Virus genome (UHGV): UHGV-1351772
Source of the DNA: a virus
Length of the DNA: 64,000 nucleotides
Direction: 5' to 3' (one strand)
Shown: one piece after another, positions 1 through 62,751 of the stretch
Layout: every line of letters begins with the position of its first letter
Position numbering within the stretch: position 1 is the stretch's first letter
Made by a program: the position numbers and the translations under genes
Notes under the pieces: model-generated
Told to the model about the DNA's origin: nothing
Database searches by the model: none
What the model saw: the letters and a program-made list of their open reading frames with translations, nothing else

Positions 1-50
1 AACGACTTCAGAACTGGACGCGTGGCGAGCTAGAGAAAAACCCAGAAGTC

Positions 51-3000
51 ATGAAACGCCTACAGTTGGCGAAGTATGGCTTTGGAAATTTGTCGTCTAT
101 TTCTAACTCGGCAATAGCGGGAGAAACAAGCGGTCCGTTAGCTGATCTGTTTCGACTAATGCACGATTTGGGACTAGTTAACCCGCTACGTCGCGAAACC
201 TTAGCATTAGACGATCGTTCTGCGGAATCTCTTTCTGCGGCGGCGAAGTTCGATCGTAAAGCTTACCTTAGTATCACAGAAGTTATTCCGACGTTACTGT
301 CCGAGATTAACAAATCTATTCGTCGTGGGTATGGCGAACACCACGATCAGGTTTATGACCTGACCACGCGCGGTATGGTGGATCGCAAAGTTATTGGTAA
401 TCGTGTACGTAAGGCCGTTGCTAATGACGATCAGCGCAAACGTTTACAGACGTACATCAACGACACTGTCGACTTTATCGATAAAGATAAAACGCTCGAT
501 AGGAAAACACGTCAAGCGTTAGCGGACTACATCGAGTCTCGTGCCTCGGAAGGGAAAGCGTTCGATGTAGGGTCTTTATTGAAAGACCCGATGCACATGT
601 ATCGATACATGAACGCAAACGCTGTGGAAGCGATTCAGGGTGTTTTAGAAGCCCGTTCTGCGGAACTGGTTGGCGGACACCATGAACTGAGTAATGCGAT
701 TTCAAACAAAATCGCCGCTATCCAGTCAACGATTCGTGCACGTCAAGACACGGTTGATGCTGCGTCTGTGATTTACGGCGAGAACGCACTTCGTGATTCC
801 GGTATTTTTAAATACGATGCGAAGAAAGACATTTTCGAGGTCGATAAGGACATTAACGATCCCTATACGTTATTTAATGACCTGTCGATGGGTAAGACCC
901 GCTCTGGACGTTCGTTAACCCGTGAGCAAGAGATTCAGCGTAAATTGCAAAACGGTTCTGCGCTGGGTGATTACTTGCGACGGATGGGTGCAGGCGCAGA
1001 GCCGAGCTTTGAAGACAAAGAACTGTCCAATGTACGTGGCGGTGGAAAAGGAGGTCGTGGTCGCGGTTTAAGCGCACGCCAACTCGCTGCGGTACTTTAT
1101 GGAGAGAAATCCACTAACTTTGTTGAACTGTTAAGCAGTCGTCCAGACACGAACGCCGGGTTGGAACAGCAATTCGACCGTTTGATTGATGCTGTACGTA
1201 AACAGCCCGAATCTAGCACAGTGCAAGATATCCTCAAACACGTTAAGAACATGGATGAGGAAGGTATTCTCCTAGCCAGTTTAGGCGGTAGTCGTGATGA
1301 CGGTGACGAATCTGAAAGTTCGAGTGACTCGGGTCGTAAACGTCGTCGTAAACGCAAACGTATTGTGCTAGGCGAGACAGGCTTGTTACGCCGTTGGGCT
1401 GGGGTGCTTTGGGATACCGGTTCAGGTGTAGGGCGGTTTGGTAAGAATCTGTTCCTACGTGGGAAAGATCGTCTGCAGGCTTTAGGTGGTTTTATCCGTG
1501 GGAAATTCTCAGGCGGCTCCTCCGAAGGACCCGGTGTATTTAGCCGACTGAAAGGGTTAGTAACAGGTACTCTATCGACAGGTTGGAATTCTGCTGTAGC
1601 TTTCGGTAAAGGCGTTTTAGGTGTTCGTGATATTTACGATGAACGTGGCAACGTCGTATTACAAGGAAGTCGTTTAGAAGCTGGGGAATATTACCAGGCT
1701 GACCCGAAAACTGAGAAGCTGATTCAACTTAAAACCCTCGACGATATTAAACTGGGACGTGATATTGTCGATGAAGCGGGTAATTTAATCTTAGCTGCTG
1801 CTGATTTGGCTGCCGCAGGTAAACTGCGTTTCTACAAAGGTGGTAAAGTTCAAGCGCTTTTCCAGTACATTTCTGGGAAAGCAGGAACGGCGGTAAACAA
1901 AGCTGTGACTTTACCGAAGAAACTTTTAGGCTTCATTTCACCTAAAGCGGCTTCGTTGTTCGAGAAAGCACGTGAGTGGCTAAATGAGGTTCCAGAGGGC
2001 GCAGAGAAAACCCGTTTACAAAGCATGATTTCCCGTGTAACGGGAATGCCAGCGCGTTTGTGGAACAATGCAAAACGCGGGTTTGAGAAGCTCAAAGAGT
2101 TGGCTTCTGATAACCCTCTGACACGTTGGTGGCAGAACCGTAAGGAAGGGGGTTCTGGTGGTGGGTTTAGTGTGTTCTCATGGTCGAACGGCCGTAAAAC
2201 TAACCACATCTTAATCCGTATCTACAAACTCCTTAACCGGAGATTGCCAGGTGAACCAGAAGATGATACCTGGACAGAACAGATGGAGCGGAATACGGGA
2301 GCCAGTTCAGTTAAAGGATTATTCCAACGTGCTAAAGACATACGCGATGGGTTCCGTGAACATTTTCAGGGGTTCCGGGATTGGCGCGGTCGGATGCGTG
2401 ACAGAATGTCCCGTTATCGCGGTGCGGTAGGCGATCGTCTTTCTCGTTGGGGCGGTACCGCACGTGGTTGGTTTGATCGTTTCCGTGGCCGTGCAAGCGA
2501 TATGGTCGATACTTTCCGCGATCCGCGTTACGATATCGGCACACGTTATCGAATGGAGAGTCGTTTAGCAGGACGCGATGACGATGTTGCTGAGTTTTAT
2601 CGTCAACACATCTACGCAAGAGGTAAGGTGTCTAAAACACGTATCATCGATGCGGCAAAAGAAGACTTAGACACCGTAACGGATAGCGCTGGACGTGTGA
2701 TTAATAAAGGGAAACAGAAAGCCCGTAGCGTTGGGTCAGCTTTACTGGAACGCCTGAACCGAATGGTTAATCTTCAGGAAATGTCATGGTTTAACACCAT
2801 GCGTGATTCTGCGGAAAAAGCAGGTGCTTCGGATGGTTTGTTAAGAACTATGTTCAGTAAGTTCGGCCAACGCAATAAACCGCCTGCCAGTGATGAAAAA
2901 CGTGATTACTTCCAGTTCTTCCGACGCCGTCGTCGTTCTAAGGAAGAGGAAAAGGCTAAGAAAGAAGCCGAGAAGAAAGGTGGTAAGCGCGGGGTGATGG

Positions 3001-6000
3001 ATTTCCTTAAAGGACTGCCGTTGGTAGGACCGATTGTGAGTATTTTAGGCACAGTAGGTTCAATCTTAGGTAAAGTCGCGAAATGGGGAATCTTTAAGCC
3101 GGTTGGGTTTGCAGGCAAAGCGTTGTGGAACGTTGGTAAGTTTGCTGTGACTCGTTTGGCTGTCCCTGCGGTGAGTGCTGTCGCGACGGCAGCATCTGCA
3201 GTGGTAACTGCGGTTGGCTGGCCGATTATCGGTTTGGTCGCTGCAGGCGCTGCGCTATCTTGGTTTGCATATAAAACTGCAACCCGTGTGAATGCTCAGT
3301 ATTTGGATAACATGCGATTGGCACAGTACGGATTTAGAGATCACGATGAGTGGTCTTCCGACGATGGCGCAAAAGCACGTTATTTAGAAGACAACTTGAA
3401 ACCGTACATCTCTTATACAGAGAATGGCCAAGCACAGTTGCGTGGTTTGTCCGGTGACGACGTGAAGAAACTGGCCGAAGGGTTTGGTACTAACGTAGAA
3501 GACAAAGGCGAAATGCTGGCGTTTAGTGCGTTTATGCTACAACGTTTTGTGCCGATCTATTTACGTTGGATTACGGCACTGAAATCCATGGATAATGATA
3601 TCGCGTTAGCAGATGTCGGTAATCCTGCGAAAGTGTCGAAGGCAGACATGTTGAATATCTTCAACAAAATGAAGATGTCGAAAGATGCGCCTGCATTCCG
3701 TGCATTAGAAGATCCCCGCAAGGTTAACCAAGGTTGGTTCTCTAAAGCGTGGGATTTCGTAACGTTTACCCCGGCCGAGTTTTTGTCAGGCGAAGAAGTC
3801 GTTGAAGCGCAAGAACGCGTGCTTCGTTCGATTAACATGCGTCGTGATGAAAAACGTAAGGATGTAAATGCTACAGGCGGTGTGGCCGAAGGACACAAAG
3901 TTGCTTCTGTGGCAGAATCGACCCAAGCGTTGGCTCAAGCGGATGCGGAACGCAACAAAGAAGTTGCGAAAGTCGAAGGTTGGGAAGACGGCACCGAACA
4001 AGTTCAGGTTCAAGTCGACTGGAGAAGCTTACCTAAAGAAACCGATCTCCGTGATTTGGAGTCCGTAAGGTTGAAAGCTTATGGTGCGGTGAGTATTACT
4101 CAAACAACCCGTAACCTCTATACGCTCTTGGAACGTCAAGTGTTGCAAGACACCGATGTGAAAAGCTGTACGTATAAAGGCGACTGGAAACGTGCGATTG
4201 CGGTGATTGCGCCTGACGCCATTGGTGGGCCAAAAGAAGATCGGTACAAGAACTGGTTCTATAACCGCTTCTTACCTGTCTTCATGACGTACGTGGTTGG
4301 GGTGAAACGTTATGTCCCTGCTGCCGATCCGATGGACCTACGCGTTACGGGTGGGTTCTTGTATGAAATCGCACTGATGATGCGTGGTGCATACAACCTG
4401 AAAGGGGGTATTCGTCAGTCAGTGTGGGAGGTACCGTTTAACCCGTTAGGGGGAGACGCTAACACCGACGCCGGTTCAGTTGCAACGGAGTTAGAGAACC
4501 TGAAAGAACTGTCTAAGGAAGCTGATTTGGCAGTACGTAAAACGCTGCGTGCTACGCCTTCTGCGGGTTTCCGTGTGAACTGGCAGCGAAAAGATCGCGC
4601 GACTCAGATGTTCTTGACCGACGATGAGAAGGAGCAACCGTCTCGACCACAGATGAACACCTCCTCCTCTTATCGTGACCTATTGCAACCAGCGGCAAAC
4701 GACGGTGGGAATTACGGCACACCAAACGATTTGGCCGGTGCTTACGGTCAGATGGGAGCTAAGAATTACGCTGCATTTACTACCGGTAACTTCGGCGTGA
4801 AACTTGGCGATATGCAAGACGGTGACTATAAAACGTTAGCGGCTAAGTATCCAATTTCAACGTTGGGTGACGGATTGAAGCCTAACTTGAATGCGGTTGC
4901 AGCACTGATTACAGACGTAGCGAAGATGATGGGTGTTCCTCCAGCGTTAGCACTGGGAATGGCACAAGCAGAATCTGGGCTTAGATACGGTATCAAAGCT
5001 AAAGGAAGTTCTGCGGCTGGCTTGTTCCAGTTCATCAACGATACCTGGGGTGCGCAGATGAAAGCTTATGCGAGACGTTATGGTATCCCGCAAACCAACC
5101 AGTATGACCCGTGGGCGAATGCTCTGCTTGGCGTCCGTCATATTCGTGATAATATCGAGAAAGCCAGAAAGGATTTAGGTGGTATCGATCCTCCAGGTGC
5201 AGCTGTTTACCTCTACCACTTCTTAGGACAAGGTGGCGGTAAGAAATTCCTGCAAGAATGGAAGCGTGATCCGAACGGGCCATCGTCGCGTGGTGCGTCG
5301 GCCGATCAAATCGCGGCAAACAGCACAATTTTCTACAAGAATGGAAAATTGCGTAGTTTGGATGAAGTGCTCAACATCATGGGTGGTAAGATTGGTGCTG
5401 TAGGAACAAACGCGATCGCGGCTAACCAGGCATCGCTGAAAGACTTGACGACAGGCGTAACACCAATGCCGTCTTCCCCGGCTATCGCTGCAGGCGCTGC
5501 TAACGATCCGTCTATCACAGGCCCGGCAGATAACCTGCCAGCCGCGAACGAGGCGAATCGCGACTCCGCTTTAGCAGACAAAGGCGCGATGGGTGCTGAA
5601 GATATTAAAGCTGCAACTGGTGGTGGTCCGGCTGTGCCGAGTCCTGGCGGCGATGTCACGCCGAGCGATGCGTCAGTTGTTGTAGAGACGGTGGGTCAAA
5701 ATGCACGTGCTGATGGCCTGGCCGAAGAAGAGGTTGCTAAAGTAAAAGAAGGTGCTAGACAGCAGATGGAGAAATCGGCCCGTCCTGCACCAACGGTAAC
5801 TTCCGATGCTCAGAGCGGTTCTACAGTGAACAGTGGTGATCCGATCAGTGTACAACAGCTGGCGGTTGCAAAAGAGTCTGCAGGCTATCTGAAAGAGATT
5901 GTAACAATTCTTCGCCAGCGGCCACAGGCTATGCAAAACGGTCCGGCTAACCCGGCGTCAACCGCTCCGGGTTCGGCGTCACGTAACGTGTCAATAACTC

Positions 6001-6041
6001 AACCCGCGCCGCAACTCGACGTTAGTCGTAAATCAGCGTAA
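51..6041 (+). CDS. Giant virion-associated protein with lytic transglycosylase (SLT) domain; possibly 5'-partial at window edge
   Basis: 1996-aa ORF; same frame has no stop between position 3 and the ATG at 51, so the gene may start upstream of the window. SLT motif MAQAESGL...SSAAGLFQF...YLYHFLGQGG at about nt 4926-5290. Hydrophobic segment cluster (GLPLVGPIVSILG...AVGWPIIGLVAAGAALSWFAY), basic stretch SGRKRRRKRKR, Ala/Pro/Gly-rich C-terminus. Intrinsic terminator immediately downstream. Confidence 0.7.
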   Translation: MKRLQLAKYGFGNLSSISNSAIAGETSGPLADLFRLMHDLGLVNPLRRETLALDDRSAESLSAAAKFDRKAYLSITEVIPTLLSEINKSIRRGYGEHHDQVYDLTTRGMVDRKVIGNRVRKAVANDDQRKRLQTYINDTVDFIDKDKTLDRKTRQALADYIESRASEGKAFDVGSLLKDPMHMYRYMNANAVEAIQGVLEARSAELVGGHHELSNAISNKIAAIQSTIRARQDTVDAASVIYGENALRDSGIFKYDAKKDIFEVDKDINDPYTLFNDLSMGKTRSGRSLTREQEIQRKLQNGSALGDYLRRMGAGAEPSFEDKELSNVRGGGKGGRGRGLSARQLAAVLYGEKSTNFVELLSSRPDTNAGLEQQFDRLIDAVRKQPESSTVQDILKHVKNMDEEGILLASLGGSRDDGDESESSSDSGRKRRRKRKRIVLGETGLLRRWAGVLWDTGSGVGRFGKNLFLRGKDRLQALGGFIRGKFSGGSSEGPGVFSRLKGLVTGTLSTGWNSAVAFGKGVLGVRDIYDERGNVVLQGSRLEAGEYYQADPKTEKLIQLKTLDDIKLGRDIVDEAGNLILAAADLAAAGKLRFYKGGKVQALFQYISGKAGTAVNKAVTLPKKLLGFISPKAASLFEKAREWLNEVPEGAEKTRLQSMISRVTGMPARLWNNAKRGFEKLKELASDNPLTRWWQNRKEGGSGGGFSVFSWSNGRKTNHILIRIYKLLNRRLPGEPEDDTWTEQMERNTGASSVKGLFQRAKDIRDGFREHFQGFRDWRGRMRDRMSRYRGAVGDRLSRWGGTARGWFDRFRGRASDMVDTFRDPRYDIGTRYRMESRLAGRDDDVAEFYRQHIYARGKVSKTRIIDAAKEDLDTVTDSAGRVINKGKQKARSVGSALLERLNRMVNLQEMSWFNTMRDSAEKAGASDGLLRTMFSKFGQRNKPPASDEKRDYFQFFRRRRRSKEEEKAKKEAEKKGGKRGVMDFLKGLPLVGPIVSILGTVGSILGKVAKWGIFKPVGFAGKALWNVGKFAVTRLAVPAVSAVATAASAVVTAVGWPIIGLVAAGAALSWFAYKTATRVNAQYLDNMRLAQYGFRDHDEWSSDDGAKARYLEDNLKPYISYTENGQAQLRGLSGDDVKKLAEGFGTNVEDKGEMLAFSAFMLQRFVPIYLRWITALKSMDNDIALADVGNPAKVSKADMLNIFNKMKMSKDAPAFRALEDPRKVNQGWFSKAWDFVTFTPAEFLSGEEVVEAQERVLRSINMRRDEKRKDVNATGGVAEGHKVASVAESTQALAQADAERNKEVAKVEGWEDGTEQVQVQVDWRSLPKETDLRDLESVRLKAYGAVSITQTTRNLYTLLERQVLQDTDVKSCTYKGDWKRAIAVIAPDAIGGPKEDRYKNWFYNRFLPVFMTYVVGVKRYVPAADPMDLRVTGGFLYEIALMMRGAYNLKGGIRQSVWEVPFNPLGGDANTDAGSVATELENLKELSKEADLAVRKTLRATPSAGFRVNWQRKDRATQMFLTDDEKEQPSRPQMNTSSSYRDLLQPAANDGGNYGTPNDLAGAYGQMGAKNYAAFTTGNFGVKLGDMQDGDYKTLAAKYPISTLGDGLKPNLNAVAALITDVAKMMGVPPALALGMAQAESGLRYGIKAKGSSAAGLFQFINDTWGAQMKAYARRYGIPQTNQYDPWANALLGVRHIRDNIEKARKDLGGIDPPGAAVYLYHFLGQGGGKKFLQEWKRDPNGPSSRGASADQIAANSTIFYKNGKLRSLDEVLNIMGGKIGAVGTNAIAANQASLKDLTTGVTPMPSSPAIAAGAANDPSITGPADNLPAANEANRDSALADKGAMGAEDIKAATGGGPAVPSPGGDVTPSDASVVVETVGQNARADGLAEEEVAKVKEGARQQMEKSARPAPTVTSDAQSGSTVNSGDPISVQQLAVAKESAGYLKEIVTILRQRPQAMQNGPANPASTAPGSASRNVSITQPAPQLDVSRKSA

Positions 6042-6048
6042 TAACAAC

Positions 6049-6077
6049 AGGGGGGTAGGAAACTACCCCCGTTTTTT
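6049..6077 (+). terminator. Intrinsic terminator after giant SLT gene
   Basis: Stem GGGGGTAG / CTACCCCC, loop GAAA, followed by TTTTTT. Confidence 0.7.
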
Positions 6078-6088
6078 AGAGGTATAAC

Positions 6089-8260
6089 GTGGACGCTAGA
6101 TCAGCTAACGACTCAAGCTGGGTCAGAAATCTATTTAAGGGAGAGTTGGAAGGCCGAGATGAACGTTTTCTGGCCTTGCGACGCTACTCTAACGGTATGA
6201 TGTCTTTTGAAGATACGACCATGGGCGGTAGCAAAGCGATTAATAGCCCTCCACAGTTTACGTGGTTTGCAGACCCCCCATCAACAGGGGCATTTGCACG
6301 ACCCGGTAATCGTGAAGCGGAGAAAAAGGCGTTGGCTAACGGTATGCCAACCTCTTCTTATCGCTTAGGGACGTATTATTACGAAAGCATTAACCAAAAT
6401 TCGTTTTACGTACATTGTCGCTTCGGCAAGCCGAAATATCTGGGAATGGCCGCATTCTTTGCGAATATGTACGATTCCAACTTAGCGTATTTAGCGCGTA
6501 CGGGCGATTATCCGGGAATGATCCGCACGATAGCAAGTTATATCGGTGCGGCAGCGATATGGGCCACTGTAGGCACTGTCGCTTTTGCGGTAATTTTAAT
6601 TACTCCTCGCATTCTCGCAGCAGCGTTGAATAAACAAACGTCGCGTTACTATTACGTTAAACCGACGATGCATCTGTATTTGCGTGCTGTACAGAACATC
6701 TTGAATACGCAGCTTGTTTATCGTCGTTTGGTTCCCACGGGTATCTTAGGTACCTTCCAGGTTAGTCAAGACGGCGATGGAAAAGGGAACAAAAAAGCAC
6801 GTGATGATGCTTTTGAAGCGTTGCCGGAGGTTTGGAAAAAAGACGGTGAATTCGATGTCTTTAAGATGATCAACCGTTATCAAACCCTGGCGAACTATCA
6901 GAATCAACGTTTAAAAGAACTTCGTAAGCAGTCCTCAAGTGACGATGATTTCGCCGAGCGGATACGAAATTTCTATTTGGACAGCACATATGGTGCGGCT
7001 TCGTATTCTGACGATGTGAGAAATTACGAAGTTTCTTTGCAAGACATGGAGCGGTTAGCTGCATCCGAGCGCGGTGGCTATGCGGCGAAAGACGCGTCGG
7101 GCAAAGATATTAATAGTGTTGATGAACTGGAAAAAGGGGTTCTCGATGCGTTTAGTTCCGGGCTACAAACTGGGGGAACGGCAAGCGACCTAGAGGCGCA
7201 GGCGGCAGAAATCCAAAACAAAATGAACGAGGATTTGGAAAATGCCGATGCGAGTAACCTCACCGAGGGACAACAGATTACGATACAGTCCTGGGCGGAT
7301 AAAGGTAAAGAATCGACTATGGAGACGTTCTTCGGCGACTTTGTTAAAGTGGTTGGCGAACAGATTGAAGGGATTAAAGCACAGGCGCTGTCCGAAATCT
7401 ACAACGGTTCTCAGTGGGTAACCTGGAGAATCGATGGGAAGGACACCGTCTCTCGTTCGTTCTCTAACTCTACAAAAGAGCCGGAGATCTCTAGCACAGT
7501 TAACTCAATGACAGCGAAAGCTCGTCAACTTGAAGTAAACTTGTCCGGCGGGCAAACCGGCTTCAACGCGGTCGATTCATTAATTACGGGCTTTAAGTCC
7601 GTAATGCGTGGGTTAGCAGATACGTTGCATCTAACGGGGATTATGTCGTTATATAATTCATCCGTCATTGACTTCCCAGAGGTGTGGGACAGTTCAGATG
7701 CCTCGGGCGATGATATTAACTTGACAATACCTTTACGTGCATGGTCTGGAAGTGACCTGGATATCTTCCAGGAAATTCTAGTGCCACTATCCTTTTGGAT
7801 CGCCGCAGTATGTCCAATTGCGACAGGTAAACAATCGTTCACTCATCCGTTTTATCTGGAGTGTTACTCGCAAGGTCGATTCTCGTTCCGTAATGCTATC
7901 GTAACATCTTTGTCTTTACAATTCGGTGTGGGTGGTTTAGGTTGGCGACCAGGTGATTCTGTTCCACTGTCTTGTGATATCAATGTTACCATCCGTGATT
8001 TGTCGCGTGTGATGTATATGCCCATCGTTACAGACACAGGTGTTTGGGACGACGATAATAAATTCAGTGAGTTTATGGCGTGTTTGGGTGCAGCGACGTT
8101 GTACGAACGTACGAACGGTATAGAGCGTGCCAAGATCCAAGGAAGCATTTGGGCGCAGAACTGGGCATCTGCGTGGTCACAGGGCAGTTTTATTAACTCT
8201 GCGTTTGATGTGCTTCCAGCACGCCAGATCGCGAACATCTTCTTGCCGCAAGCACGTTAA
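6089..8260 (+). CDS. Hypothetical protein with one predicted transmembrane segment (possible virion/ejection-module protein)
   Basis: 723-aa ORF starting at GTG with GAGGT upstream; hydrophobic segment IGAAAIWATVGTVAFAVILITP; directly follows the giant SLT gene. Confidence 0.5.
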   Translation: MDARSANDSSWVRNLFKGELEGRDERFLALRRYSNGMMSFEDTTMGGSKAINSPPQFTWFADPPSTGAFARPGNREAEKKALANGMPTSSYRLGTYYYESINQNSFYVHCRFGKPKYLGMAAFFANMYDSNLAYLARTGDYPGMIRTIASYIGAAAIWATVGTVAFAVILITPRILAAALNKQTSRYYYVKPTMHLYLRAVQNILNTQLVYRRLVPTGILGTFQVSQDGDGKGNKKARDDAFEALPEVWKKDGEFDVFKMINRYQTLANYQNQRLKELRKQSSSDDDFAERIRNFYLDSTYGAASYSDDVRNYEVSLQDMERLAASERGGYAAKDASGKDINSVDELEKGVLDAFSSGLQTGGTASDLEAQAAEIQNKMNEDLENADASNLTEGQQITIQSWADKGKESTMETFFGDFVKVVGEQIEGIKAQALSEIYNGSQWVTWRIDGKDTVSRSFSNSTKEPEISSTVNSMTAKARQLEVNLSGGQTGFNAVDSLITGFKSVMRGLADTLHLTGIMSLYNSSVIDFPEVWDSSDASGDDINLTIPLRAWSGSDLDIFQEILVPLSFWIAAVCPIATGKQSFTHPFYLECYSQGRFSFRNAIVTSLSLQFGVGGLGWRPGDSVPLSCDINVTIRDLSRVMYMPIVTDTGVWDDDNKFSEFMACLGAATLYERTNGIERAKIQGSIWAQNWASAWSQGSFINSAFDVLPARQIANIFLPQAR

Positions 8261-8276
8261 TGTTTGAGAGGAAATA

Positions 8277-8840
8277 ATGGCTAATACGCTATTAGGTAAA
8301 TCAGGAAAACAACTGGTTTATGAGTTATTAGTAAAAAAGAATCCTGGTTTGGTAGAGAAAGGTATTACAATCGATAAGTTGAATTTTGGTACACCGTCAC
8401 ATATTCCTGCGGTAGAAACACCAGAAACCCAATTTACACGATTAAATACCCAACTTAGCGTCCAGGGAATTATTGAACAGAAAACGTTTGGTAAAATCGA
8501 CGTTATTTATCGTCGATTGGATTTAGAGCACCTCTTAGGTGACTTTGTAGTTTCTGTTGCGGGTGTTAATGCGGCTACGGTATCTGAGGTACTACAGCTT
8601 TTCCGCAATAAGTACAATTTACAGATTACCGACGATGAAGTTGAGAACCCAACAGCTGCACCAGACAGCAAAGATAAAACCATCATTATCATGAATGGGA
8701 CATCTTTGGCATGGACAGGGCGGCTGGAAGTGTACTTAACAGAGCTGCCGTCCGACGGTAAGGATATTTCGAAGTTGATTAAAGTCACTGAACTTGACGG
8801 TTTGACGTATATCTCTTCTGGGATTGTTCCAGGCGCTTAA
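8277..8840 (+). CDS. Hypothetical protein
   Basis: 187-aa ORF, ATG preceded by GAGAGGAAATA; ends at bidirectional terminator. Confidence 0.5.
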   Translation: MANTLLGKSGKQLVYELLVKKNPGLVEKGITIDKLNFGTPSHIPAVETPETQFTRLNTQLSVQGIIEQKTFGKIDVIYRRLDLEHLLGDFVVSVAGVNAATVSEVLQLFRNKYNLQITDDEVENPTAAPDSKDKTIIIMNGTSLAWTGRLEVYLTELPSDGKDISKLIKVTELDGLTYISSGIVPGA

Positions 8841-8861: not shown

Positions 8862-8902
8862 TCTACCTACCTCCGAAAGGAGGTAGGTACTTTTATTTAT
8901 TT
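8862..8902. terminator. Bidirectional intrinsic terminator between convergent genes
   Basis: Stem TACCTACCTCC / GGAGGTAGGTA with GAAA loop, A-run upstream and T-run (TTTTATTTATTT) downstream. Confidence 0.7.
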
Positions 8903-9727
8903 CGCCAGATCTGCTTCTTTTACAAAGATACCGTCGGCGTTCAGATAACCTTTACGGTCTTTGATTTCGTGCCAGGCCAAAGAGAAACAATGGCGAATGT
9001 TAAGACGATAATAGAGAGCGAGTCGCGCAAGACGATGTAAAGCCCAACCTAACGTAACAGTACCCAGTTCAGTACGTAAGAACGCAGTAGCGAAGATTTC
9101 GGTAGCCTCTAAATACAACTGGTGTGGATATTTGGTATCGTTTAAACGTTCTTCAACGTCAGCGACATCATCTACCTGCAATTGTAAACCGCGTTCGATG
9201 ACTTCAGCGGTTGTCATTCCGCCAGTCACTCTGTCCTTATCCAGTTCCAGGATGTTTACCAGAACCACCAACGCATCGCCGATGCCGTCCATGATCAGTT
9301 CAGGTTTGTTTTTGCTGATACCTGTTGCAATCTCACCAAATTCTTCATAGAACTTTGTGATTTGAGTTTCCAGTTTACCGTTGTCGAGAATACCACGTTC
9401 TTTAGACCAACCTTTAACACGTTCTACACAGTTTTCAATAGAGTAGACCGGAACAGATTCTGTATGCATTACCGTGCCGTTGTAAACAGCATCGGTAAGC
9501 TTAATAGGCGCTACAATTGTTTCGATGTCCAGTTCTTGATTACCGGTGTGACGTTTACCTTCTACACGAATACGGTTGGTACCAGGGTTTACACCAATTG
9601 TGTAAATAGCATCGAACTGTACTGCATTCTCATTCAGAGCGCGCAGTTGTGCGTTAACTTCTTCCAGGTGCTGACCAGGATTAACCACGATGTTGTAAAT
9701 AGTGTTGATGTCAAAACGTTCGCCCAT
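8897..9727 (-). CDS. MazG-like nucleotide pyrophosphohydrolase domain protein with extra N- and C-terminal regions
   Basis: 276 aa; central segment YEEFGEIATGI...MDGIGDALVVLVNILE fits the MazG EExGE...D.hGD.L pattern; flanking regions unassigned. Confidence 0.4.
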   Translation of the reverse strand: MGERFDINTIYNIVVNPGQHLEEVNAQLRALNENAVQFDAIYTIGVNPGTNRIRVEGKRHTGNQELDIETIVAPIKLTDAVYNGTVMHTESVPVYSIENCVERVKGWSKERGILDNGKLETQITKFYEEFGEIATGISKNKPELIMDGIGDALVVLVNILELDKDRVTGGMTTAEVIERGLQLQVDDVADVEERLNDTKYPHQLYLEATEIFATAFLRTELGTVTLGWALHRLARLALYYRLNIRHCFSLAWHEIKDRKGYLNADGIFVKEADLAK

Positions 9728-10962: not shown

Positions 10963-11997
10963 TTAGACAGCTATGGGAGCTTTAATTGTGTCGTGCGATT
11001 GATATCCAACCAATTCGAAGTCTTCGAATTTGTAATCGAAGATGGAATCAGGTTTACGTTTGATAACCAGTTTAGGTAGCGGGTAAGGTTCGCGAGTAAG
11101 TTGAAGTTTTGCCTGCTCCAGATGGTTAGAGTAAAGATGAACATCTACGCCACTATAAACCAACTCGTCTGGAACCATATTGAGTTGTTGAGCAATCATG
11201 TGAGTTAACAACGCGTAAGAAGCGACGTTAAACGGTGCGCCAAGTAGGTAATCGTTGCTCCGCATCATGTAAAAACACGAAAGTTTACGACGAGGGATAC
11301 CTTCACGATCTAAGGTTTCATGAAGTCGTTCTTCGTTATCGATATCTTCGTGGTTAATAAGCGGTGCGTTCGCAAACTTTTCCGGTTCGTTTACTTCGTA
11401 CCAATCCAGTCGTTCAAGCAACGTCATTTCTGTTGTGTAAAATTGGAAATAGTTGTGACATGGATTGAGTGCCATATCGTCCAGGTCACCTACATTCCAG
11501 GCACTAACGATAATACGGCGGGAGTCAGGGTCTTCACGAAGTTGTTGGATAACTTTACTGATCTGGTCATGTGCTTTTTCATAAACCAAATACGTCGTAC
11601 TATCTTCCTTCATATTCCCGATATACTTGTAACCCCGCTGCATTAGTTGTTGTGTACGTCTTACGTCATGACACTCCACAACTTTACAGTCGCGCCATTC
11701 CCGCCACTGGTGTCCGTAGACAGGACCTAAATTCCCTTCTTCATTCGCCCAAGCATCCCAGATTTTTACCCCGTTCTCTTGCAGGTACTTCACGTTAGTG
11801 TCACCGTTTAAGAACCACAATAGTTCATGAATGATACTTTTCAGGTGAACCTTTTTCGTAGTAACTAATGGGAAACCTTCTTTCAGGTCAAAACGTAGTT
11901 GACGACCAAATACAGAAAGTGTCCCTACACCTGTGCGGTCTTTCTTGACAACACCGTTATCCAGAATGTCTTGCATTAACGCTAAATACTGTTTCAT
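10963..11997 (-). CDS. thyA: Thymidylate synthase family enzyme (ThyA-like) with two internal insertions
   Basis: 344 aa; collinear with E. coli ThyA from N-terminus ([15 protein letters not shown]...DRTG.GTLS.FG) to C-terminus ([24 protein letters not shown]...IKAPIAV); catalytic PCH and [10 protein letters not shown] motifs present; about 35 and 45 extra residues after WREW and after FQFY. Confidence 0.85.
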
Positions 11998-52660: not shown

Positions 52661-55600
52661 ATGGCTGTCGTCCTAGACCCACACTTCAAAAAACCGGGGA
52701 ATAAAATAACCGGTGAAGCGGTCGCCGTCATTGGTACGAAATACCGAATGTTGGTACCTGCCCACGCCCCTTTTTTCACCACATCCCTGGTGGTCAAGAG
52801 CGGCGGCAAAATACTGACCTTAGGCGACGATTACGTTATTACACACCCGTACGAGACCGGTATGTTGCGCACAGCCTATCTCATTCACGGGATGATTTGG
52901 ATTGTTAATGACAAATACAAATCGAATTTTACGGTAGATTACCACGCCGTTGGTTGTGGTCAGGCTACCCAACAACAGATTACCGCAGAACGCGAACTCA
53001 ATAAAGATAAATACCCGTCTGCGTGTCAGTGGGACACCGTCATCGGGGACGTTTACTTTCCGCCGGTCGATATTCAGTTCGATTGGGAGAATTGGAAAGG
53101 TGAACTGGAATTAATGCAGGCTATTGCTGGATTAGGCGATTCGTTAGGGGAAGTCGTGAGTCGGCTTAACCCCATCGCACGCAATACCCTGGATTTAGAA
53201 TACCGTGCTAATAGCAAGGTTATCACTTCCGAGCAGTATGCCGTATACGACAATAAAGGTGGCTTCACCTACAACACTGCCCGTCATCGTTATAGCTTGA
53301 GTTATAAAACTGCAACCTTTAACGACTACGCCCTGTCAGTGAAACACAGAATTCCTGCTATTCTGCCAGACATGACGAAATTGAATCCAAACGAACAGAT
53401 CGATTGGATGCTCTGTTATGCTAACGGCGGTGCAAGTATTCTACGGCTGCAGCTAAAACAGCGCAAAATCTCACTGGTCTTAACGGTCGCTATTGGTAGC
53501 GGTTCAACAAACTACGATTATACGTTAATCAACGGTTTAACTGACGATGAGTTAAAAAACGATATCGATTTTAGTGTAACCCGTCAACCCGGAAACGGTG
53601 TTTACGTCATCGTAGTAAAAACAAATAAACAGACCATGGATTACACATTCAACGTCGATACACCGCCTGATGAGTTCTCGGCAGGGTATTCGAAAACGGA
53701 TGTTGCTAAATGGTTGAAGTTTAAAACGAACATTAATTTAAACTGGTATGCGGCCGAAAACGATTATATCCAAATTCGTTCTTTACCCGGCGCACCAGAA
53801 CCTGACGTCGATAACGATGTTTACCAGTTAATAGTTAAATATCATCAGTTAGTTGAGCAGCTGTATCGTAACGCGCCTGCACACGAACACGTTACACGTA
53901 AGGACAACCCGCACACCGATACGTGGGGTCCGATCCGTGCGTTAGAGCTGAATGGTATTGCGTCGGATGCCGCGTTAGCTTACGGGAAAACGAAACAACA
54001 GTTAACGGATTACGTTAATGCTAAGTACCCAACACAAGCAACGTTAACCGCACAGAAAAAATTGCTTCGTGAATCGGCGAGCAAGAACGTTAACGGCACG
54101 ATTACCACACTTCCGGGTTTTACTTCGTTCACGACGGAAGTTGATCCGGTTTCGATGTCGAAATACGTGAGTCCTTATTTTAGCGAAAGCTATGTTAGTA
54201 GTGGACACAGATATCACGGTGCGCTTCGTTACACAGGAACGAAAAACGGTTTCAGTGCTAACTTTAATGCGGTGCCTGCCAACCTGCAAGATATTGACTT
54301 TATTGTTACTGGACGTAAGACAGCATCCGGTAATGAAGCGGTCGGTAGGGTTGGTTTACGTTTCTACGAAAACCCGGGTAGTAACTCCGGTAAGTTCGTA
54401 GAGATTACTGGCCAAATCTGGGGTGGTACCCTTACTATCAGTCTGACATTGAACGGTTACGGGAGTCCGTTACCGTCAGTACGTTATATTTCTCAAGCTC
54501 CTAATCCGGCAATACCGGATGGGGATTTTACGCTACGTTTTCAACTGAAGCGTACAGGGAACGTGTTTAACGTCGTTATTACCGTAAACGGTAAAACGTA
54601 TAGCGGTCGGATTAACTTCGATAACATGGACGCTGCGTTAGAAGCATTAGAGAATCAGCACCACTTTAAATCGCTGATCAATAATGTTGCTGACGCCGTC
54701 ACTATTAGTTCGCAAAACAAAGGTAACACGGTTACCATTAAGAAAGCACCGGATGTTGTTGATGGGGTTCGCTTAGGTGCCCAGTTTGTCGTTGATCCGA
54801 AATCCATTAAGTTTATTGGCCAAGGTTCAACTGATGTTAACGTAGGAAATAACCCCGTAACGTTCCAAGCAGGTACTAACCAGCTTATGTTGTATCCTGA
54901 TGATCGTGGGTTACAGTGGCGTGGTAAAAAACTCTTAGACCCCACCACCGTGGCCCCGTATCTACCAGGCAATACCGCAGGTGGCACAGGTTTATTCTAC
55001 GCAAGTTCGACAACAACGGTTACGATCACCGGTAGCGGGATAAAAGCCTCGCCGTTCGTAGCGACCTTTATTCTTCCTACCGCGACCGATACAACAGCTC
55101 TGGCAGCTTGGCAGTTGACCGATGAGTTCGGTACCGCTGAAAACCTTGCAGCAACGCCAGCACTGATTGAAAAACTCGATGCGGAGTTCACCGGTAAGTT
55201 AGTTGCAGTTAAATCGTACATTAACGACATGCAACTTACCAGCTCGGTTACTATCGATAAGATTACCTTTGGTTTAGGTAATGTTGCGAATACGCCCGAT
55301 GCCGATTTACCGATTTCTACAGCACAGCGTGCGGAGTTAGATAAATACTCGCCTAAAGTTCACCAACACCCGTTTACCGCTTTTGGTACTGGGAACGCAA
55401 CCACAGCGCAACGTGGTCTGATTAAATTTGGTCTGGATGTGGATGATGCGACTTTAGCACTCGATGGGAGTGTGGTAATGGCGCAGACTTCTCAGATTGA
55501 AAAATTGGAGCGCGCTGTCAGCGGTGTTGACTCGGAGGCACGTCTTGACATTATACGTTTTGGTGAGTCTGGTAACGACTTAATAGACCTTACGGTCAAA

Positions 55601-56983
55601 GACAAAATTCTGGTCACGCTTCCAGCTTCAACGTATTTTATCGGTGGTGAAACATACGACGTTCCGTTGATGACGATTAACGTCAGTGAACGTTTTCCGA
55701 AATTGAATACAGAAATCTACGCAGGGATTTTTGTTGACATCGTTGACAACAAAGCGAAGTATATTGTCCACGACAGCTACAGTCAGGCTGAAACGGATAC
55801 CATGACGCGTGTAGGGTTGATTGGTGTTAACGACATTTCTGAGGTGTTCGTTACGGAGATGCGTAATGTCACACGGTTGGGTGATTTCCGTGAACTGAAA
55901 GATCATAAAGCCGATGACAACGCACACATTCAGCGCTCCGCGTCACGTGCAGCGCTTGGGTTAGCTAACTTAACGGTAGGCGCGCCTTGCTGGGCTTCTG
56001 GACTCCAGGCAGTAGTACGCGGTGAAGCAGATTGGCGTTATGTTGCCGGTGGGCAGTATAAAGCTTTAGACGGGGTGAAATACGACCAGCTCGCATCCAA
56101 GTGGATTTTTGACGCGAAAGGGGTAAGCGATAACCTTCACGGGTTTATCCACAACATGTTCCCAGCTTTTAAGAACGCAGGAATGCGAGTCAGTTGGGAA
56201 ACAGAAAGCAACGCAAAAACCGGCACGGTGTTAGAAACTGTTTTAGGTTGTTGGAAAAACACCGACGGCGAGTTTATGCGGTTGTCGTTACTTATCACTC
56301 GTGGTTATCGTTTAACTGACAGCAACGGTGAATATTGTTACGCAGGGTTCGGTTTGAACTTCGGTAGCGGGAAATCGGTAGTGTTAGGTTTCACACCAAC
56401 GAAGCATGTTACGCCTGCACCGTGGAATACGTTACAACCTGACGTAACGTTTACCCACACCCGTGCTGCAAATAACGCAATAACGTTTAACGCAACATTG
56501 ACCTTAGCGGGCACTACGTATACCATCGTGGTGTTTTTATCTGCGACTGATAAATACGTAAGTTGCACGGCAGCAGGGGGAGCTACGCAGAAAATCCCTC
56601 TAACTGACCGTTTAACTGGGTTCAATATCGCACCTATCGTTAACGATCCGTATACCCCTATTTACTACGGTTTAGGGGGACTTTATGAGGATGAAGTTCG
56701 TGCCAACATCCGTTCTACGGCAGATAGCGCAACCGCGAATAAAGTCTATGGTACGTTGTTAGACTATATTAGCAACTATTCCTCATTAAATCGTGTGCGC
56801 GTTATGGAATTGACCGGTGTCAGTTCAGACCCCGAAACGCTTAATGCGTTAGTGGCAACTGAATTTAATAACAACCTGGCGGATTACGCTGCGTTACCGA
56901 TACCTCCTTATCTTAACAAGGAGCGCGTAATGTCGTTTATCGACACCAACAATAAAGTGCAGGCGGTAATCATTCGCGATTAA
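52661..56983 (+). CDS. Tail fibre protein
   Basis: 1440 aa; AGGAG ribosome-binding site; N-terminal module shared with 56994 and 61273 ORFs; fibre-repeat-like segment ATTAQRGLIKFG. Confidence 0.7.
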   Translation: MAVVLDPHFKKPGNKITGEAVAVIGTKYRMLVPAHAPFFTTSLVVKSGGKILTLGDDYVITHPYETGMLRTAYLIHGMIWIVNDKYKSNFTVDYHAVGCGQATQQQITAERELNKDKYPSACQWDTVIGDVYFPPVDIQFDWENWKGELELMQAIAGLGDSLGEVVSRLNPIARNTLDLEYRANSKVITSEQYAVYDNKGGFTYNTARHRYSLSYKTATFNDYALSVKHRIPAILPDMTKLNPNEQIDWMLCYANGGASILRLQLKQRKISLVLTVAIGSGSTNYDYTLINGLTDDELKNDIDFSVTRQPGNGVYVIVVKTNKQTMDYTFNVDTPPDEFSAGYSKTDVAKWLKFKTNINLNWYAAENDYIQIRSLPGAPEPDVDNDVYQLIVKYHQLVEQLYRNAPAHEHVTRKDNPHTDTWGPIRALELNGIASDAALAYGKTKQQLTDYVNAKYPTQATLTAQKKLLRESASKNVNGTITTLPGFTSFTTEVDPVSMSKYVSPYFSESYVSSGHRYHGALRYTGTKNGFSANFNAVPANLQDIDFIVTGRKTASGNEAVGRVGLRFYENPGSNSGKFVEITGQIWGGTLTISLTLNGYGSPLPSVRYISQAPNPAIPDGDFTLRFQLKRTGNVFNVVITVNGKTYSGRINFDNMDAALEALENQHHFKSLINNVADAVTISSQNKGNTVTIKKAPDVVDGVRLGAQFVVDPKSIKFIGQGSTDVNVGNNPVTFQAGTNQLMLYPDDRGLQWRGKKLLDPTTVAPYLPGNTAGGTGLFYASSTTTVTITGSGIKASPFVATFILPTATDTTALAAWQLTDEFGTAENLAATPALIEKLDAEFTGKLVAVKSYINDMQLTSSVTIDKITFGLGNVANTPDADLPISTAQRAELDKYSPKVHQHPFTAFGTGNATTAQRGLIKFGLDVDDATLALDGSVVMAQTSQIEKLERAVSGVDSEARLDIIRFGESGNDLIDLTVKDKILVTLPASTYFIGGETYDVPLMTINVSERFPKLNTEIYAGIFVDIVDNKAKYIVHDSYSQAETDTMTRVGLIGVNDISEVFVTEMRNVTRLGDFRELKDHKADDNAHIQRSASRAALGLANLTVGAPCWASGLQAVVRGEADWRYVAGGQYKALDGVKYDQLASKWIFDAKGVSDNLHGFIHNMFPAFKNAGMRVSWETESNAKTGTVLETVLGCWKNTDGEFMRLSLLITRGYRLTDSNGEYCYAGFGLNFGSGKSVVLGFTPTKHVTPAPWNTLQPDVTFTHTRAANNAITFNATLTLAGTTYTIVVFLSATDKYVSCTAAGGATQKIPLTDRLTGFNIAPIVNDPYTPIYYGLGGLYEDEVRANIRSTADSATANKVYGTLLDYISNYSSLNRVRVMELTGVSSDPETLNALVATEFNNNLADYAALPIPPYLNKERVMSFIDTNNKVQAVIIRD

Positions 56984-61272: not shown

Positions 61273-62751
61273 ATGCCGAGAGAAGACGCGGCGCAGTTTA
61301 ACGGTACGTTAAGCACAGCGACGTACCCTAACCGATTTAATGTGGTCATTCCGCCTGAAGGACCTTTTTATCGTATCGGATTAAAACTCACAGTAGCCGA
61401 CGATACCGCGCCTAACGGACGTCGTACTCTGATTGAGGGGTTGGACTACTATTTAGGCTATTACTTTAAAGAACTCGCAGAAGCTGAACAAGATCAGATT
61501 TATGGCGGGTTCATGTTGTTAACCGCAACAGAAATCGAATATGAGATTTTAGGGGCGGCACGTCAGTATCGTGTACCGCAATCTGAAATCGGAAAGTTCT
61601 TAGTTCGTACTGACCTGGAAGACCCACGTAACGTGGATTGGTCAGAGTTAATGGCGTATGCGCCAGTTATTCAACCTATCGACCCGCCCGCTAACTTAGA
61701 AGAAGCGATTCTGAGGGACGAGGTCGTTAAAGCGTTGAACGACATTCGTAAGAAAATCACTCAACGTTCAGCAGAGTTAGACGCGGCTTTCACCGAAGTC
61801 ACTAACCTGATTTACGAGAACGGTAAAAAGGTTTTCGATGAAGAGTTATACCAGCATCATCGTAACCCTAACGCACATCAGTATACGACCAACGATGTTG
61901 GTGCCCTTCCAGTTTTAGGGCGTGCTGTTGACGCGACAAAAGCGTTTGGGCTGACGATCGACGAATTGGCTACGCTGATGGGTTCGGCGGGCATTGAGCA
62001 ATCCGAAGTTGATCAGTTAATGGGTGAAGCCCTCGGTACCGTTTACGGTCGTTGGGGTAGCACGAACGGTAATGAATTAACGTTTAAAACAGCAGGCGGA
62101 CACATCATCAGTATCCGTGGTGATAAGTGGTTAATTACCTCACCGCAACCGTTAGTGATTAAAGCAGACCAGGACAACAACGAATCTGGCTTAGCGGTTG
62201 AGTTTAGTGCGGGGCTGAATACGCTTTGGGTACACTCTGGGTCAGAACAGGAAGTATTAGCGCCGGTTTATAACTCCGTCTATCTCGTTACACCAGAAAT
62301 GGTGAACATGTACCTGACGTCTGTAACGTTACTTGAAGCGAACGCCTATTTCAAACCGTCAGACACCGTAAAACCGTACGGTACAGCGAAGCAGTCTAAC
62401 CCACTAACGTTGAACGCGAATATTCCCACAGCAACCGAGTCGGTTTATGGGGTGTTTTCGATTACGAATATCGCAACCTCCGTAGCGCTAGGCACTGCTA
62501 TTTCCCAAAAGGCGGTGACCGAATTAAAAGACCGGTTAGACTTGTACGTTGACGATGACTACACGGTTAACGGTAAAGGGTTTGTTAAGACAGGCGATAA
62601 AATGGTGTTAACCTTAACGAAAACCGATTTCGGTATCGATAAGATGGATAACACCATGCCGATCGCTAAACCGGTAACAAAAGCGTTAGCGAATGTGCTG
62701 AAAAATAAAAAGTGTGAAGGAGCACACGCACACTACCGCCGATTTGGATAA
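61273..62751 (+). CDS. Tail fibre protein, proximal part (shared N-terminal anchor module)
   Basis: 492 aa; N-terminus PPEGPFYRIGLKLTV...EGLDYYLGYYF aligns with the other two fibres; ends at a single TAA that is in frame with the next ORF. Confidence 0.6.
   Translation: MPREDAAQFNGTLSTATYPNRFNVVIPPEGPFYRIGLKLTVADDTAPNGRRTLIEGLDYYLGYYFKELAEAEQDQIYGGFMLLTATEIEYEILGAARQYRVPQSEIGKFLVRTDLEDPRNVDWSELMAYAPVIQPIDPPANLEEAILRDEVVKALNDIRKKITQRSAELDAAFTEVTNLIYENGKKVFDEELYQHHRNPNAHQYTTNDVGALPVLGRAVDATKAFGLTIDELATLMGSAGIEQSEVDQLMGEALGTVYGRWGSTNGNELTFKTAGGHIISIRGDKWLITSPQPLVIKADQDNNESGLAVEFSAGLNTLWVHSGSEQEVLAPVYNSVYLVTPEMVNMYLTSVTLLEANAYFKPSDTVKPYGTAKQSNPLTLNANIPTATESVYGVFSITNIATSVALGTAISQKAVTELKDRLDLYVDDDYTVNGKGFVKTGDKMVLTLTKTDFGIDKMDNTMPIAKPVTKALANVLKNKKCEGAHAHYRRFG

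Follow-up and report, generated by a model that had tools for sequence, protein, structure and literature searches.

The left end of the window (the whole stretch of 64,000 nt analysed here, from virus genome UHGV-1351772) carries a very large reading frame that is open to the edge, and this raises the questions of where the gene begins and what its product does. Nucleotides 51 to 6041 of the plus strand form a single ORF of 1996 aa, and the same frame continues without a stop codon through nt 3–50; the chance of 2012 stop-free codons, computed from base composition, is about 1e-47. Antisense ORFs within nt 51–6041 are each no longer than 119 aa, start with TTG or GTG in most cases, and were treated as chance. 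The feature as we now describe it is as follows.

3..6041, plus strand: the C-terminal 2012 codons and the stop codon of a giant tail protein of the SPN3US gp239 / phiKZ gp181 type, 2374 aa as a whole

The window thus holds the last 85% of this protein, and the first 362 of its 2374 residues lie outside. The 16 codons to the 5′ side of nt 51 (RLQNWTRGELEKNPEV) align with internal residues of an SPN3US-type homologue (KLQKWTREEMEKNPEV), and, judging from this and from the comparison below, the ATG at nt 51 encodes a methionine in the interior of the giant protein. The metagenome contig L008 matches window nt 3–8840 at 99.56% identity with no gaps, and its giant gene product differs from the window protein at 1 of 1996 residues. 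In L008 the gene spans 641..7765 and encodes 2374 aa, in-frame stops precede its start, and the N-terminus of the product (MAKKGKDDFDEIDLD...) agrees with that of the SPN3US-type protein. Because the L008 frame continues for 378 codons and has an SPN3US-like N-terminus, the true start is placed 1134 nt upstream of nt 51, with these 378 codons being taken from the 99.56% identical contig and not from the window's own genome. The original prediction, of an open frame of at least 1996 aa that may extend beyond the window, is therefore borne out in both parts by the single frame open back to nt 3 and by the additional L008 codons, and the combination of a stop and a ribosome-binding site just before nt 51 is not seen.

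The family to which the protein belongs is readily recognized. It matches PHROG 3201 with an E value of 0 (1574 bits), SPN3US-type proteins of 2372–2373 aa share 57% identity with it over 100% of the query, and phiKZ gp181 is collinear with it (E 2e-34 for the C-terminal part and 2e-17 for the N-terminal part). On these alignments we regard it as the collinear orthologue of SPN3US gp239 and phiKZ gp181. When clustered at 50% identity the gp181/gp239 family gives at least 1281 clusters, and 40 homologues of 2260–2623 aa have identities as low as 21% in alignment A1. Among the collected family members 173 of 180 are longer than 2000 aa, the median being 2327 aa and the 5–95% range 2152–2541 aa, and the full length of 2374 aa seen in L008 fits the family length of about 2200–2500 aa. 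A megablast search of nt 1–8000 against the phage collection gave a 60–140-nt patch as the sole match, so no closely related isolate is represented there; the phage is a Seoulvirus relative, so far known from metagenome assemblies only.

Most database records of this family, including GenBank/RefSeq entries and the label of PHROG 3201, read 'putative tail fiber protein', and a tail fibre is the first alternative to be weighed. It is scarcely credible. The label is a propagated annotation and not a tested function, phiKZ fibres are assigned to the gp131 family, and the protein lacks fibre-like beta structure and any receptor-binding or chaperone domain; its features are instead helices, a hydrophobic cluster and an enzyme domain. 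These parts are arranged from left to right as follows.

3..2990, plus strand: N-terminal and central region, mostly alpha-helical, the presumed ruler and tube-lumen part (AlphaFold2 model and homology to the phiKZ gp181 N-terminal part)
1335..1361, plus strand: poly-basic run RKRRRKRKR, aa 429–437, in a predicted disordered acidic/Ser-rich linker
2991..3284, plus strand: hydrophobic Gly/Ala-rich cluster of about four helices, aa 981–1078 (Kyte-Doolittle 19-aa windows of 1.5–2.0; helices in the model)
3294..3614, plus strand: repeat domain 1, aa 1082–1188, with motifs R-x3-Y-G ... E ... R-F-x-P
4047..4337, plus strand: repeat domain 2, aa 1333–1429, with the same motifs (VRLKAYGA ... NRFLPVFMTY)
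4896..5399, plus strand: lytic transglycosylase (SLT / GH23-type) domain, aa 1616–1783, from alignment to phiKZ gp144 (E 3e-19)
5400..6038, plus strand: Ala/Pro/Gly-rich C-terminal part, from composition, with a conserved extreme C-terminus TQPxPxLxVSR

The AlphaFold2 model of the N-terminal segment (m882fd7dfe34f) contains 66% helix and 5% strand at a low-confidence mean pLDDT of 55, with one confident helical domain (about aa 1–315) followed by long low-confidence helices. The poly-basic run, the hydrophobic multi-helix segment and the Ala/Pro/Gly-rich tail had all been noted previously and are present, the last with an A+P+G fraction of up to 0.43 at aa 1801–1900 and three predicted helices at model residues 751–776, 794–829 and 852–875. 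The RKRRRKRKR run is retained in close relatives only, its SPN3US equivalent being KRRR, and a second basic run, RRRRR (aa 958–962, nt 2922–2936), lies in a highly charged stretch before the hydrophobic cluster. This cluster is a candidate membrane-inserting segment. It was found at the equivalent position in 17 of 20 family proteins scanned, SPN3US among them, and in the same scan none exceeded the threshold in phiKZ gp181 or in relative P0036, while relative P0039 has a cluster at 1324–1373 and an extra hit at 1550–1568. The Goslar giant protein also has a hydrophobic cluster; that of phiKZ gp181 is weaker, with a maximum hydropathy of about 1.2 compared to 2.0 here.

Between the hydrophobic cluster and the SLT domain is a tandem pair of domains of about 100 aa that is conserved across the family. 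The profiles of the two repeats align by hhalign with 98.1% probability (E 1.4e-13, 97 columns), the motif residues are invariant across 29 homologues, and repeat domain 1 is modelled at pLDDT 81–91. Single-sequence BLASTP of one repeat against the other is not significant (E 1.0, 17% identity), so the duplication is visible by profile-profile comparison only.

The SLT domain, previously placed at about nt 4926–5290, is confirmed by a Pfam PF01464 match at aa 1621–1707 (nt 4911–5171; 30.2 bits against a cut-off of 21.3) within the longer gp144 alignment at nt 4896–5399. It has a lysozyme-like alpha-helical fold, with the catalytic Glu at aa 1641 (GAA, nt 4971–4973) in the motif AQAES aligned to gp144 Glu115, a downstream SLT motif AAGLFQF of the G-L-x-Q type, and the invariant Tyr at aa 1720 (nt 5208–5210) aligned to gp144 Tyr197; in 29 homologues the Glu is nearly invariant and the Tyr invariant. 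We therefore consider it a gp144-type putative lytic transglycosylase with its catalytic Glu and conserved Tyr intact, and muralytic activity has been measured for the orthologue phiKZ gp181 (PMC5380687). The wall-cutting module is swapped among relatives, which carry SLT, GH19-type, VanY plus SLT, or SLT plus DUF5675 modules; in relative P0033 a GH19-type module stands in place of SLT, supported by a Pfam Glyco_hydro_19 match. This swapping and the tandem domain pair are additional to what had been described for this gene. Pfam searches at E values up to 0.1 found nothing but SLT in the protein and NCBIfam gave no match, there being no hit to the tape-measure models of either database. Neither Pfam nor PHROG gave an RNA polymerase match, in keeping with the earlier reading that RNA-polymerase motifs are absent. 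Searches of PDB sequences by phmmer and with a family profile matched SLT-type enzymes only, with no solved structure of a gp181 relative.

Taken with what is reported for its orthologues, the giant protein is very probably the tail tape measure protein (TMP) of a jumbo myophage of the phiKZ/SPN3US type. The N-terminal segment is predominantly helical, as in TMPs (66% helix in the pLDDT 55 model). T5 Pb2 and the TMP of mycobacteriophage TM4 are examples of TMPs with wall hydrolases, and lambda gpH is the archetypal ruler. In known TMPs a ruler is followed by a hydrophobic segment and then a wall hydrolase, and the order in the giant protein matches (PMC12617516). SPN3US gp239 (259 kDa) is described as that phage's tail tape measure protein; mass spectrometry finds it in virions, whereas in tailless particles it is missing or reduced more than 10-fold (PMC5105663, PMC10052503). 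PhiKZ gp181 is a muralytic virion protein, now viewed as a likely tape measure, and is essential by Tn-seq (PMC5380687, PMC12676376).

The gp181 orthologue was originally proposed to be something else, a needle of the baseplate that punctures the cell as a trimeric spike like T4 gp5, and a review table lists it as a 'needle-like cell-puncturing device, putative trimer' with muralytic activity (PMC5380687). The published maps disfavour this, as in the phiKZ cryo-EM atlas gp164 is the spike, gp163.1 the tip, gp101 the hub and gp182 the spacer, and the Goslar spike and cap are separate proteins (gp13 and gp48). With no predicted beta-helix or OB-fold, and models of 54–66% helix and 5% strand, a needle is very unlikely for the giant protein.

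The published structures also bear on the ruler role. The giant protein is neither modelled nor mentioned in the phiKZ atlas (40 modelled proteins) or the Goslar structure, and in these published structures no gp181/gp239 family member is seen inside the tail tube. The phiKZ tube has 43 layers of 37.73 Å (1622 Å) for a protein of 2237 aa, and the Goslar tube 46 layers of 39.16 Å (1801 Å) for one of 2252 aa; tube and protein lengths are not proportional between these two structures, the only ones available, and of the two proteins Goslar's has, if anything, the shorter segment ahead of the hydrophobic cluster. At 1.5 Å per residue about 1100–1200 of roughly 2300 residues would be needed. One could propose from this that the protein is not a ruler, and instead rides in the tail lumen or baseplate and on ejection cleaves peptidoglycan and breaches the inner membrane, with some other factor setting tail length: its length does not scale with that of the tube between phiKZ and Goslar, it is about twice as long as a 1.5-Å-per-residue ruler requires, and globular or linker regions make up large parts of it. 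However, two data points are too few for a scaling test, these phages have no other known tape-measure candidate, the family length is tight (2152–2541 aa for the 5–95% range) although identities fall near 20%, and the SPN3US and phiKZ authors both name the protein a tape measure. We consider the non-ruler interpretation unlikely.

The genes around the giant gene provide further context.

6051..6080, plus strand: terminator-like hairpin GGGGGTAG-GAAA-CTACCCCC followed by GTTTTTT, in the 47-nt gap 3′ of the giant gene (putative, a consensus match only)
6089..8260, plus strand: phiKZ gp182 homologue, 723 aa (BLASTP E 3e-35 and 2e-22; PHROG 3181 E 3.4e-249)
8277..8840, plus strand: DUF7941 virion structural protein, 187 aa, syntenic with an SPN3US virion structural protein of 183 aa

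In the phiKZ tail, the tail-tube initiator is separated from the baseplate hub by a 'spacer', a hexameric ring of gp182 (PMC13250141). In L008 the gene upstream of the giant gene is 89% identical to the N-terminal part of SPN3US vRNAP beta, and the order of a divergent vRNAP-beta gene, the giant gene and the gp182-like spacer gene is common to SPN3US, SaP7, phiKZ and Goslar. With this divergent vRNAP gene as the L008 neighbour, there is no frameshifted tail-assembly-chaperone pair upstream of the giant gene.

The original prediction was of a protein that crosses the envelope and cuts peptidoglycan; it had left the choice between an ejection protein and a tape-measure-like virion protein, and it is the latter part that stands, through orthology to SPN3US gp239 and phiKZ gp181. 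The former would have a parallel in T7 gp16, which belongs to the internal core, carries a transglycosylase domain and builds a tube across the envelope once it has left the capsid. Such a head-packaged protein is highly improbable here, since DNA-filled heads without tails lack SPN3US gp239, which behaves as a tail protein, the giant gene adjoins a baseplate hub gene, and the likeness to gp16 is confined to the lysozyme-like fold.

If the giant protein is the TMP, a few copies would occupy the tail-tube lumen while the tail is being assembled, with the long, mostly helical N-terminal two-thirds stretched out inside the tube and the conserved C-terminus fixed to the baseplate hub beside the gp182-like spacer ring; the C-terminal part may accordingly be the anchor to the hub. 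Upon sheath contraction and shedding of the spike the giant protein would be first out of the tube, and the SLT domain could then cleave glycan strands locally. The Gly/Ala-rich hydrophobic helices would presumably insert into the inner membrane and may help to form a conduit for DNA and co-injected proteins. When nucleus-forming jumbo phages infect, the genome is injected first into a membrane-bound 'EPI vesicle'. A speculative extension, which we view as quite unlikely, is that the hydrophobic cluster and the tandem domains, a combination present across the family and with no PDB counterpart, insert in the inner membrane and shape or gate this vesicle; in that case the TMP would be the earliest phage factor to act in making the early infection compartment, a role beyond that of ruler and wall-cutter.

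Several comparisons place the giant protein among known proteins. First, SPN3US gp239 and its Seoulvirus and Erwinia phage orthologues (Asesino, phiEaH2, Stratton) are collinear over the full length at 57% identity (2374 compared to 2372–2381 aa), and share the N-terminus, hydrophobic cluster, twin repeat, SLT domain, C-terminal motif and both neighbours; the giant protein is 57% identical to its SPN3US counterpart, whereas the neighbouring vRNAP subunit fragment is 89% identical. Secondly, phiKZ gp181 (2237 aa, 137 aa shorter, and about 22–25% identical) shares the twin R-x3-Y-G/R-F-x-P repeats, an SLT domain with the E-S motif, and synteny with vRNAP beta and gp182. Goslar_00232 (2252 aa, 'putative chitinase') has the same synteny, hydrophobic cluster and twin repeats, but its muralytic module is annotated as COG3179 instead of SLT, which we take to be a GH19-type lysozyme/chitinase module. 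Thirdly, the phiKZ endolysin gp144 (PDB 3BKH) is a family-1-like lytic transglycosylase of 260 aa with an N-terminal peptidoglycan-binding domain, in contrast to the SLT domain here, which lies within a tail protein of 2374 aa, close to its C-terminus. Finally, T5 Pb2, the TM4 TMP and lambda gpH are delivered first through the tail and have the same order of parts (a long helical region, then hydrophobic or Gly-rich, then muralytic near the C-terminus), although outside SLT there is no detectable homology and the giant protein is two to three times longer. It further differs from these TMPs of smaller phages in belonging to a contractile-tailed phage, in lacking an upstream frameshifted chaperone pair, and in having a ruler role that is putative.

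The giant gene is thus an ordinary member of a known jumbo-phage family of probable TMPs, cut by the window edge, and the significance is mainly for annotation. A fitting label is 'tail tape measure protein with lytic transglycosylase domain (phiKZ gp181 / SPN3US gp239 family), 5′-truncated by the window'; neither 'tail fiber protein' nor 'RNA polymerase-like giant protein' is a correct name for this gene. The twin repeat, conserved from here to phiKZ and Goslar, could be drawn on in experiments on how jumbo phages cross the envelope, and the interchangeable wall-cutting module and the absence from both published virion atlases are further leads; all three concern the family and none is specific to the window. 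Scans of the window for Rfam families and tRNAs were empty. The 187-aa DUF7941 protein has no detectable similarity to phiKZ gp184, and an identical copy of it is present on 23 metagenome contigs.

The giant gene at the left end of the window is an ordinary jumbo-phage structural gene, cut by the window edge. The ORF listing of the window recovers it as a single + strand ORF at 51..6041 encoding 1996 aa, in agreement with the original prediction of at least that length, and the same frame is also free of stops from nt 3 to nt 50. With the local base composition, the probability of 2012 stop-free codons in a row is ~1e-47, and the antisense ORFs within the gene are at most 119 aa long, most of them with TTG or GTG starts. 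Immediately before the nt 51 ATG, 16 codons read RLQNWTRGELEKNPEV; Salmonella phage SaP7, an SPN3US-type phage, has a 2373-aa homologue with KLQKWTREEMEKNPEV-MKRLQ inside it, 379 residues in from the N-terminus. The Met at nt 51 is thus internal. The exact 187-aa product of the gene at nt 8277-8840, a neighbour of the giant gene, occurs on 23 contigs of public assemblies, and the source phage is seen only in metagenome assemblies. Metagenome contig L008 aligns with nt 3-8840 of the window without gaps at 99.56% identity, and its giant protein differs from that of the window at 1 of 1996 residues. The L008 gene (641..7765, 2374 aa) is preceded by in-frame stops, and its N-terminus, MAKKGKDDFDEIDLDNMDDWDDF..., matches the SPN3US-type N-terminus, MAKRGKDGFDDIDLDRLDDWDDF... 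From this gene extent and N-terminal match, the window would carry the last 2012 of 2374 codons, judged from a near-identical relative that is a different molecule. The suggestion that the protein may run past the window edge is therefore borne out, and the proposed check for a stop just before nt 51 gives an open frame in L008, with the start farther upstream.

A tblastn search of 50,697 phage records matches 248 of them, 61 with one place covering at least 80% of the query, and the top matches are SPN3US and its relatives, with 57% identity to the giant protein and 100% query coverage. In these records the gene bears the label 'tail fiber protein', 'lytic transglycosylase' or 'virion associated peptidoglycan hydrolase'. 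The 2372-aa SPN3US gene is flanked by divergent virion RNA polymerase (vRNAP) beta-subunit genes and a 740-aa gene, an order that recurs in SaP7, phiKZ (gp178/180, gp181, gp182) and Goslar. The window and its twin contig L008 keep this gene order: the upstream gene of L008 shares 89% identity with the N-part of SPN3US vRNAP beta, and the downstream gene (nt 6089-8260, 723 aa) matches phiKZ gp182 (E 3e-35). phiKZ gp181 is collinear with the giant protein (N-part E 2e-17, C-part E 2e-34), which by every testable criterion belongs to the gp181/gp239 family and to the lytic transglycosylase (SLT) enzymes. The features of the giant protein are as follows, in residues of its 1996-aa window part; full-length positions are higher by 378.

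aa 1 to ~980, + strand: helical N-terminal part (AlphaFold2: 66% helix, 5% strand, mean pLDDT 55, low confidence)
aa 429-437, nt 1335-1361, + strand: poly-basic run RKRRRKRKR, from the translation
aa 981-1078, nt 2991-3284, + strand: hydrophobic cluster of about four Gly/Ala-rich helices, after a highly charged stretch
nt 3294-3614 and 4047-4337, + strand: twin repeat of ~100-aa domains, following the hydrophobic cluster and preceding the SLT domain
aa 1616-1783, + strand: lytic transglycosylase domain (phmmer against phiKZ gp144, 3BKH, E 3e-19)
aa 1784-1996, + strand: Ala/Pro/Gly-rich C-terminal part, with three predicted helices and the conserved end TQPxPxLxVSR

Every feature named in the original prediction (the SLT domain, the poly-basic stretch, the hydrophobic multi-helix segment and the Ala/Pro/Gly-rich tail) is present in the translation. 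The model of the N-terminal part, built on a 29-sequence alignment, contains a single helical domain predicted with confidence (~aa 1-315), plus one small beta unit (~aa 527-590). The poly-basic run is placed in a predicted disordered acidic/Ser-rich linker and is retained in the closest relatives only, SPN3US having just KRRR at the site. Of 20 family proteins scanned, 17 have a comparable hydrophobic cluster 55-65% of the way along the sequence, as does the Goslar protein; that of phiKZ gp181 is weaker. The two repeat domains share the motifs R-x3-Y-G ... E ... R-F-x-P and are homologues of one another by hhalign (98.1%, E 1.4e-13). Every homologue examined, phiKZ gp181 and Goslar among them, keeps both; none of the solved structures compared is similar to them. 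Pfam places SLT (PF01464) at aa 1621-1707, scoring 30.2 bits where the curated cut-off is 21.3, and the family profile matches 3BKH with E 2.8e-53. In the alignment Glu1641 (codon GAA at nt 4971-4973) corresponds to gp144 Glu115, and Tyr1720 to Tyr197. The Ala+Pro+Gly content of the C-terminal part peaks at 43% at aa 1801-1900.

The family is large and of uniform length. A word-indexed search yields 40 homologues, every one 2260-2623 aa long, with identities to the window protein down to 21% among those aligned. A twin-repeat profile run against 1.84 billion cluster representatives matches at least 1281 proteins at E <= 0.001 and 536 at E <= 1e-30; nearly all of the 150 best matches have lengths of 2085-2763 aa, and in them the module keeps its relative position. 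Among the 180 members collected, 173 are longer than 2000 aa (median 2327 aa, 5-95% range 2152-2541 aa). The wall-cutting module is exchangeable within the family, with the remaining architecture retained: homologue P0033 has a Pfam Glyco_hydro_19 (GH19) match where others have SLT, P0036 has VanY plus SLT, P0038 has SLT plus DUF5675, and the Goslar protein (Goslar_00232, L013 4418-11176) carries the annotation 'putative chitinase', COG3179. Both the twin repeat and the swapping of modules, undescribed in the literature reviewed, are properties of the family and not particular to the window, and leave the assessment of the giant gene unaffected.

SPN3US gp239 (259.1 kDa) is named the tail tape measure protein; mass spectrometry detects it in virions, and one mutant's tailless particles lack it while another's contain more than 10-fold less (PMC5105663, PMC10052503). 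Muralytic activity has been measured for phiKZ gp181, and the first proposal for this protein was a needle-like device for puncturing (PMC5380687). In the 2026 phiKZ cryo-EM atlas, gp164 is assigned as the spike, gp163.1 as the tip, gp101 as the hub and gp182 as the spacer, and gp181 is neither modelled nor mentioned (PMC13250141); in the Goslar structure the spike and cap are again separate proteins. Because these parts are assigned to other proteins, the 'needle' reading is superseded. A tape measure is the current view for the gp181/gp239 proteins and probably applies here, and the predicted ejection or tape-measure-like role is supported in its tape-measure form by orthology to them. The giant protein matches none of the curated tape-measure sequence models and the classical upstream chaperone pair is absent at its gene, so the name is assigned by orthology and not by signature. 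Orthology, synteny, an intact transglycosylase active site and helical character are shown for the protein itself; its putative tail location, essentiality and muralytic activity are carried over from the orthologues.

In the mechanism that we propose, the giant protein would lie inside the tube lumen (68 A) with its C-terminus at the hub, beside the gp182-like spacer. On sheath contraction and spike release it would exit first and then cut glycan strands, and its hydrophobic helices may enter the inner membrane and there form or prime a DNA conduit. Tape measure proteins with hydrolase modules (T5 Pb2, TM4, lambda gpH) are generally pictured as taking the same course. The proposed mechanism follows this general picture, also given in PMC12617516. 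The weakest step is the role as a ruler. Tube length and protein length are 1622 A and 2237 aa in phiKZ, and 1801 A and 2252 aa in Goslar, with no simple proportionality between the two, and a ruler at 1.5 A per residue would require only about half of the residues; for these reasons the main rival to the tape-measure reading is that the protein is delivered through the tail yet is not a ruler. A more novel but improbable reading would have the hydrophobic cluster and twin domain help to build the early-infection vesicle of nucleus-forming phages.

Among solved structures, the nearest relative of the SLT domain is the phiKZ endolysin gp144 (PDB 9xps chain S), itself a virion component, which wedges the neck whiskers to the sheath (PMC13250141); with gp144 at the neck, phiKZ-type virions would carry two related transglycosylases at opposite tail ends. 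The 47-nt gap separating the giant gene from the gp182-like gene contains a strong terminator-like hairpin (nt 6051-6080; 8-bp stem with 6 G-C pairs, GAAA loop, T-run), and the gp182-like gene has a GTG start at nt 6089 preceded by AGAGG. Its 723-aa product (6089-8260) has no match in Pfam or NCBIfam; phiKZ gp182 is a hexameric spacer ring joining the tube initiator to the baseplate hub (PMC13250141). A perfect 11-bp hairpin with T-runs on both strands (nt 8864-8889), between the convergent 187-aa DUF7941 gene and a MazG-like gene (8897-9727, minus strand), resembles a bidirectional terminator. The thymidylate synthase gene (10963-11997, minus strand) is intact in the window (344 aa), interrupted by a GIY-YIG/NUMOD3 homing-endonuclease gene in related contig L005 (12890-15008), and called as a 511-aa product in related contig L003 (13497-15032), which points to mobile-element polymorphism among near-identical phages. 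Neither tRNA genes nor Rfam families at gathering score are present in window 1-64000. The right part of the window contains a group of large structural genes:

52661-56983, 56994-61178, 61273-62751 and 62773-63972: paralogous giant virion structural proteins (PHROGs 7557, 8078, 7449, 2163)

The final two reading frames of this group, of 492 and 399 aa with 21 nt between them, align to successive segments (1-478 and 495-876) of a single profile of 1714 positions; a stop or frameshift may have divided one gene, or one gene may run on beyond the end of the window. The sign of the GC skew flips near 9-10 kb and again near 42-44 kb, tracking the strand switches of the gene blocks.
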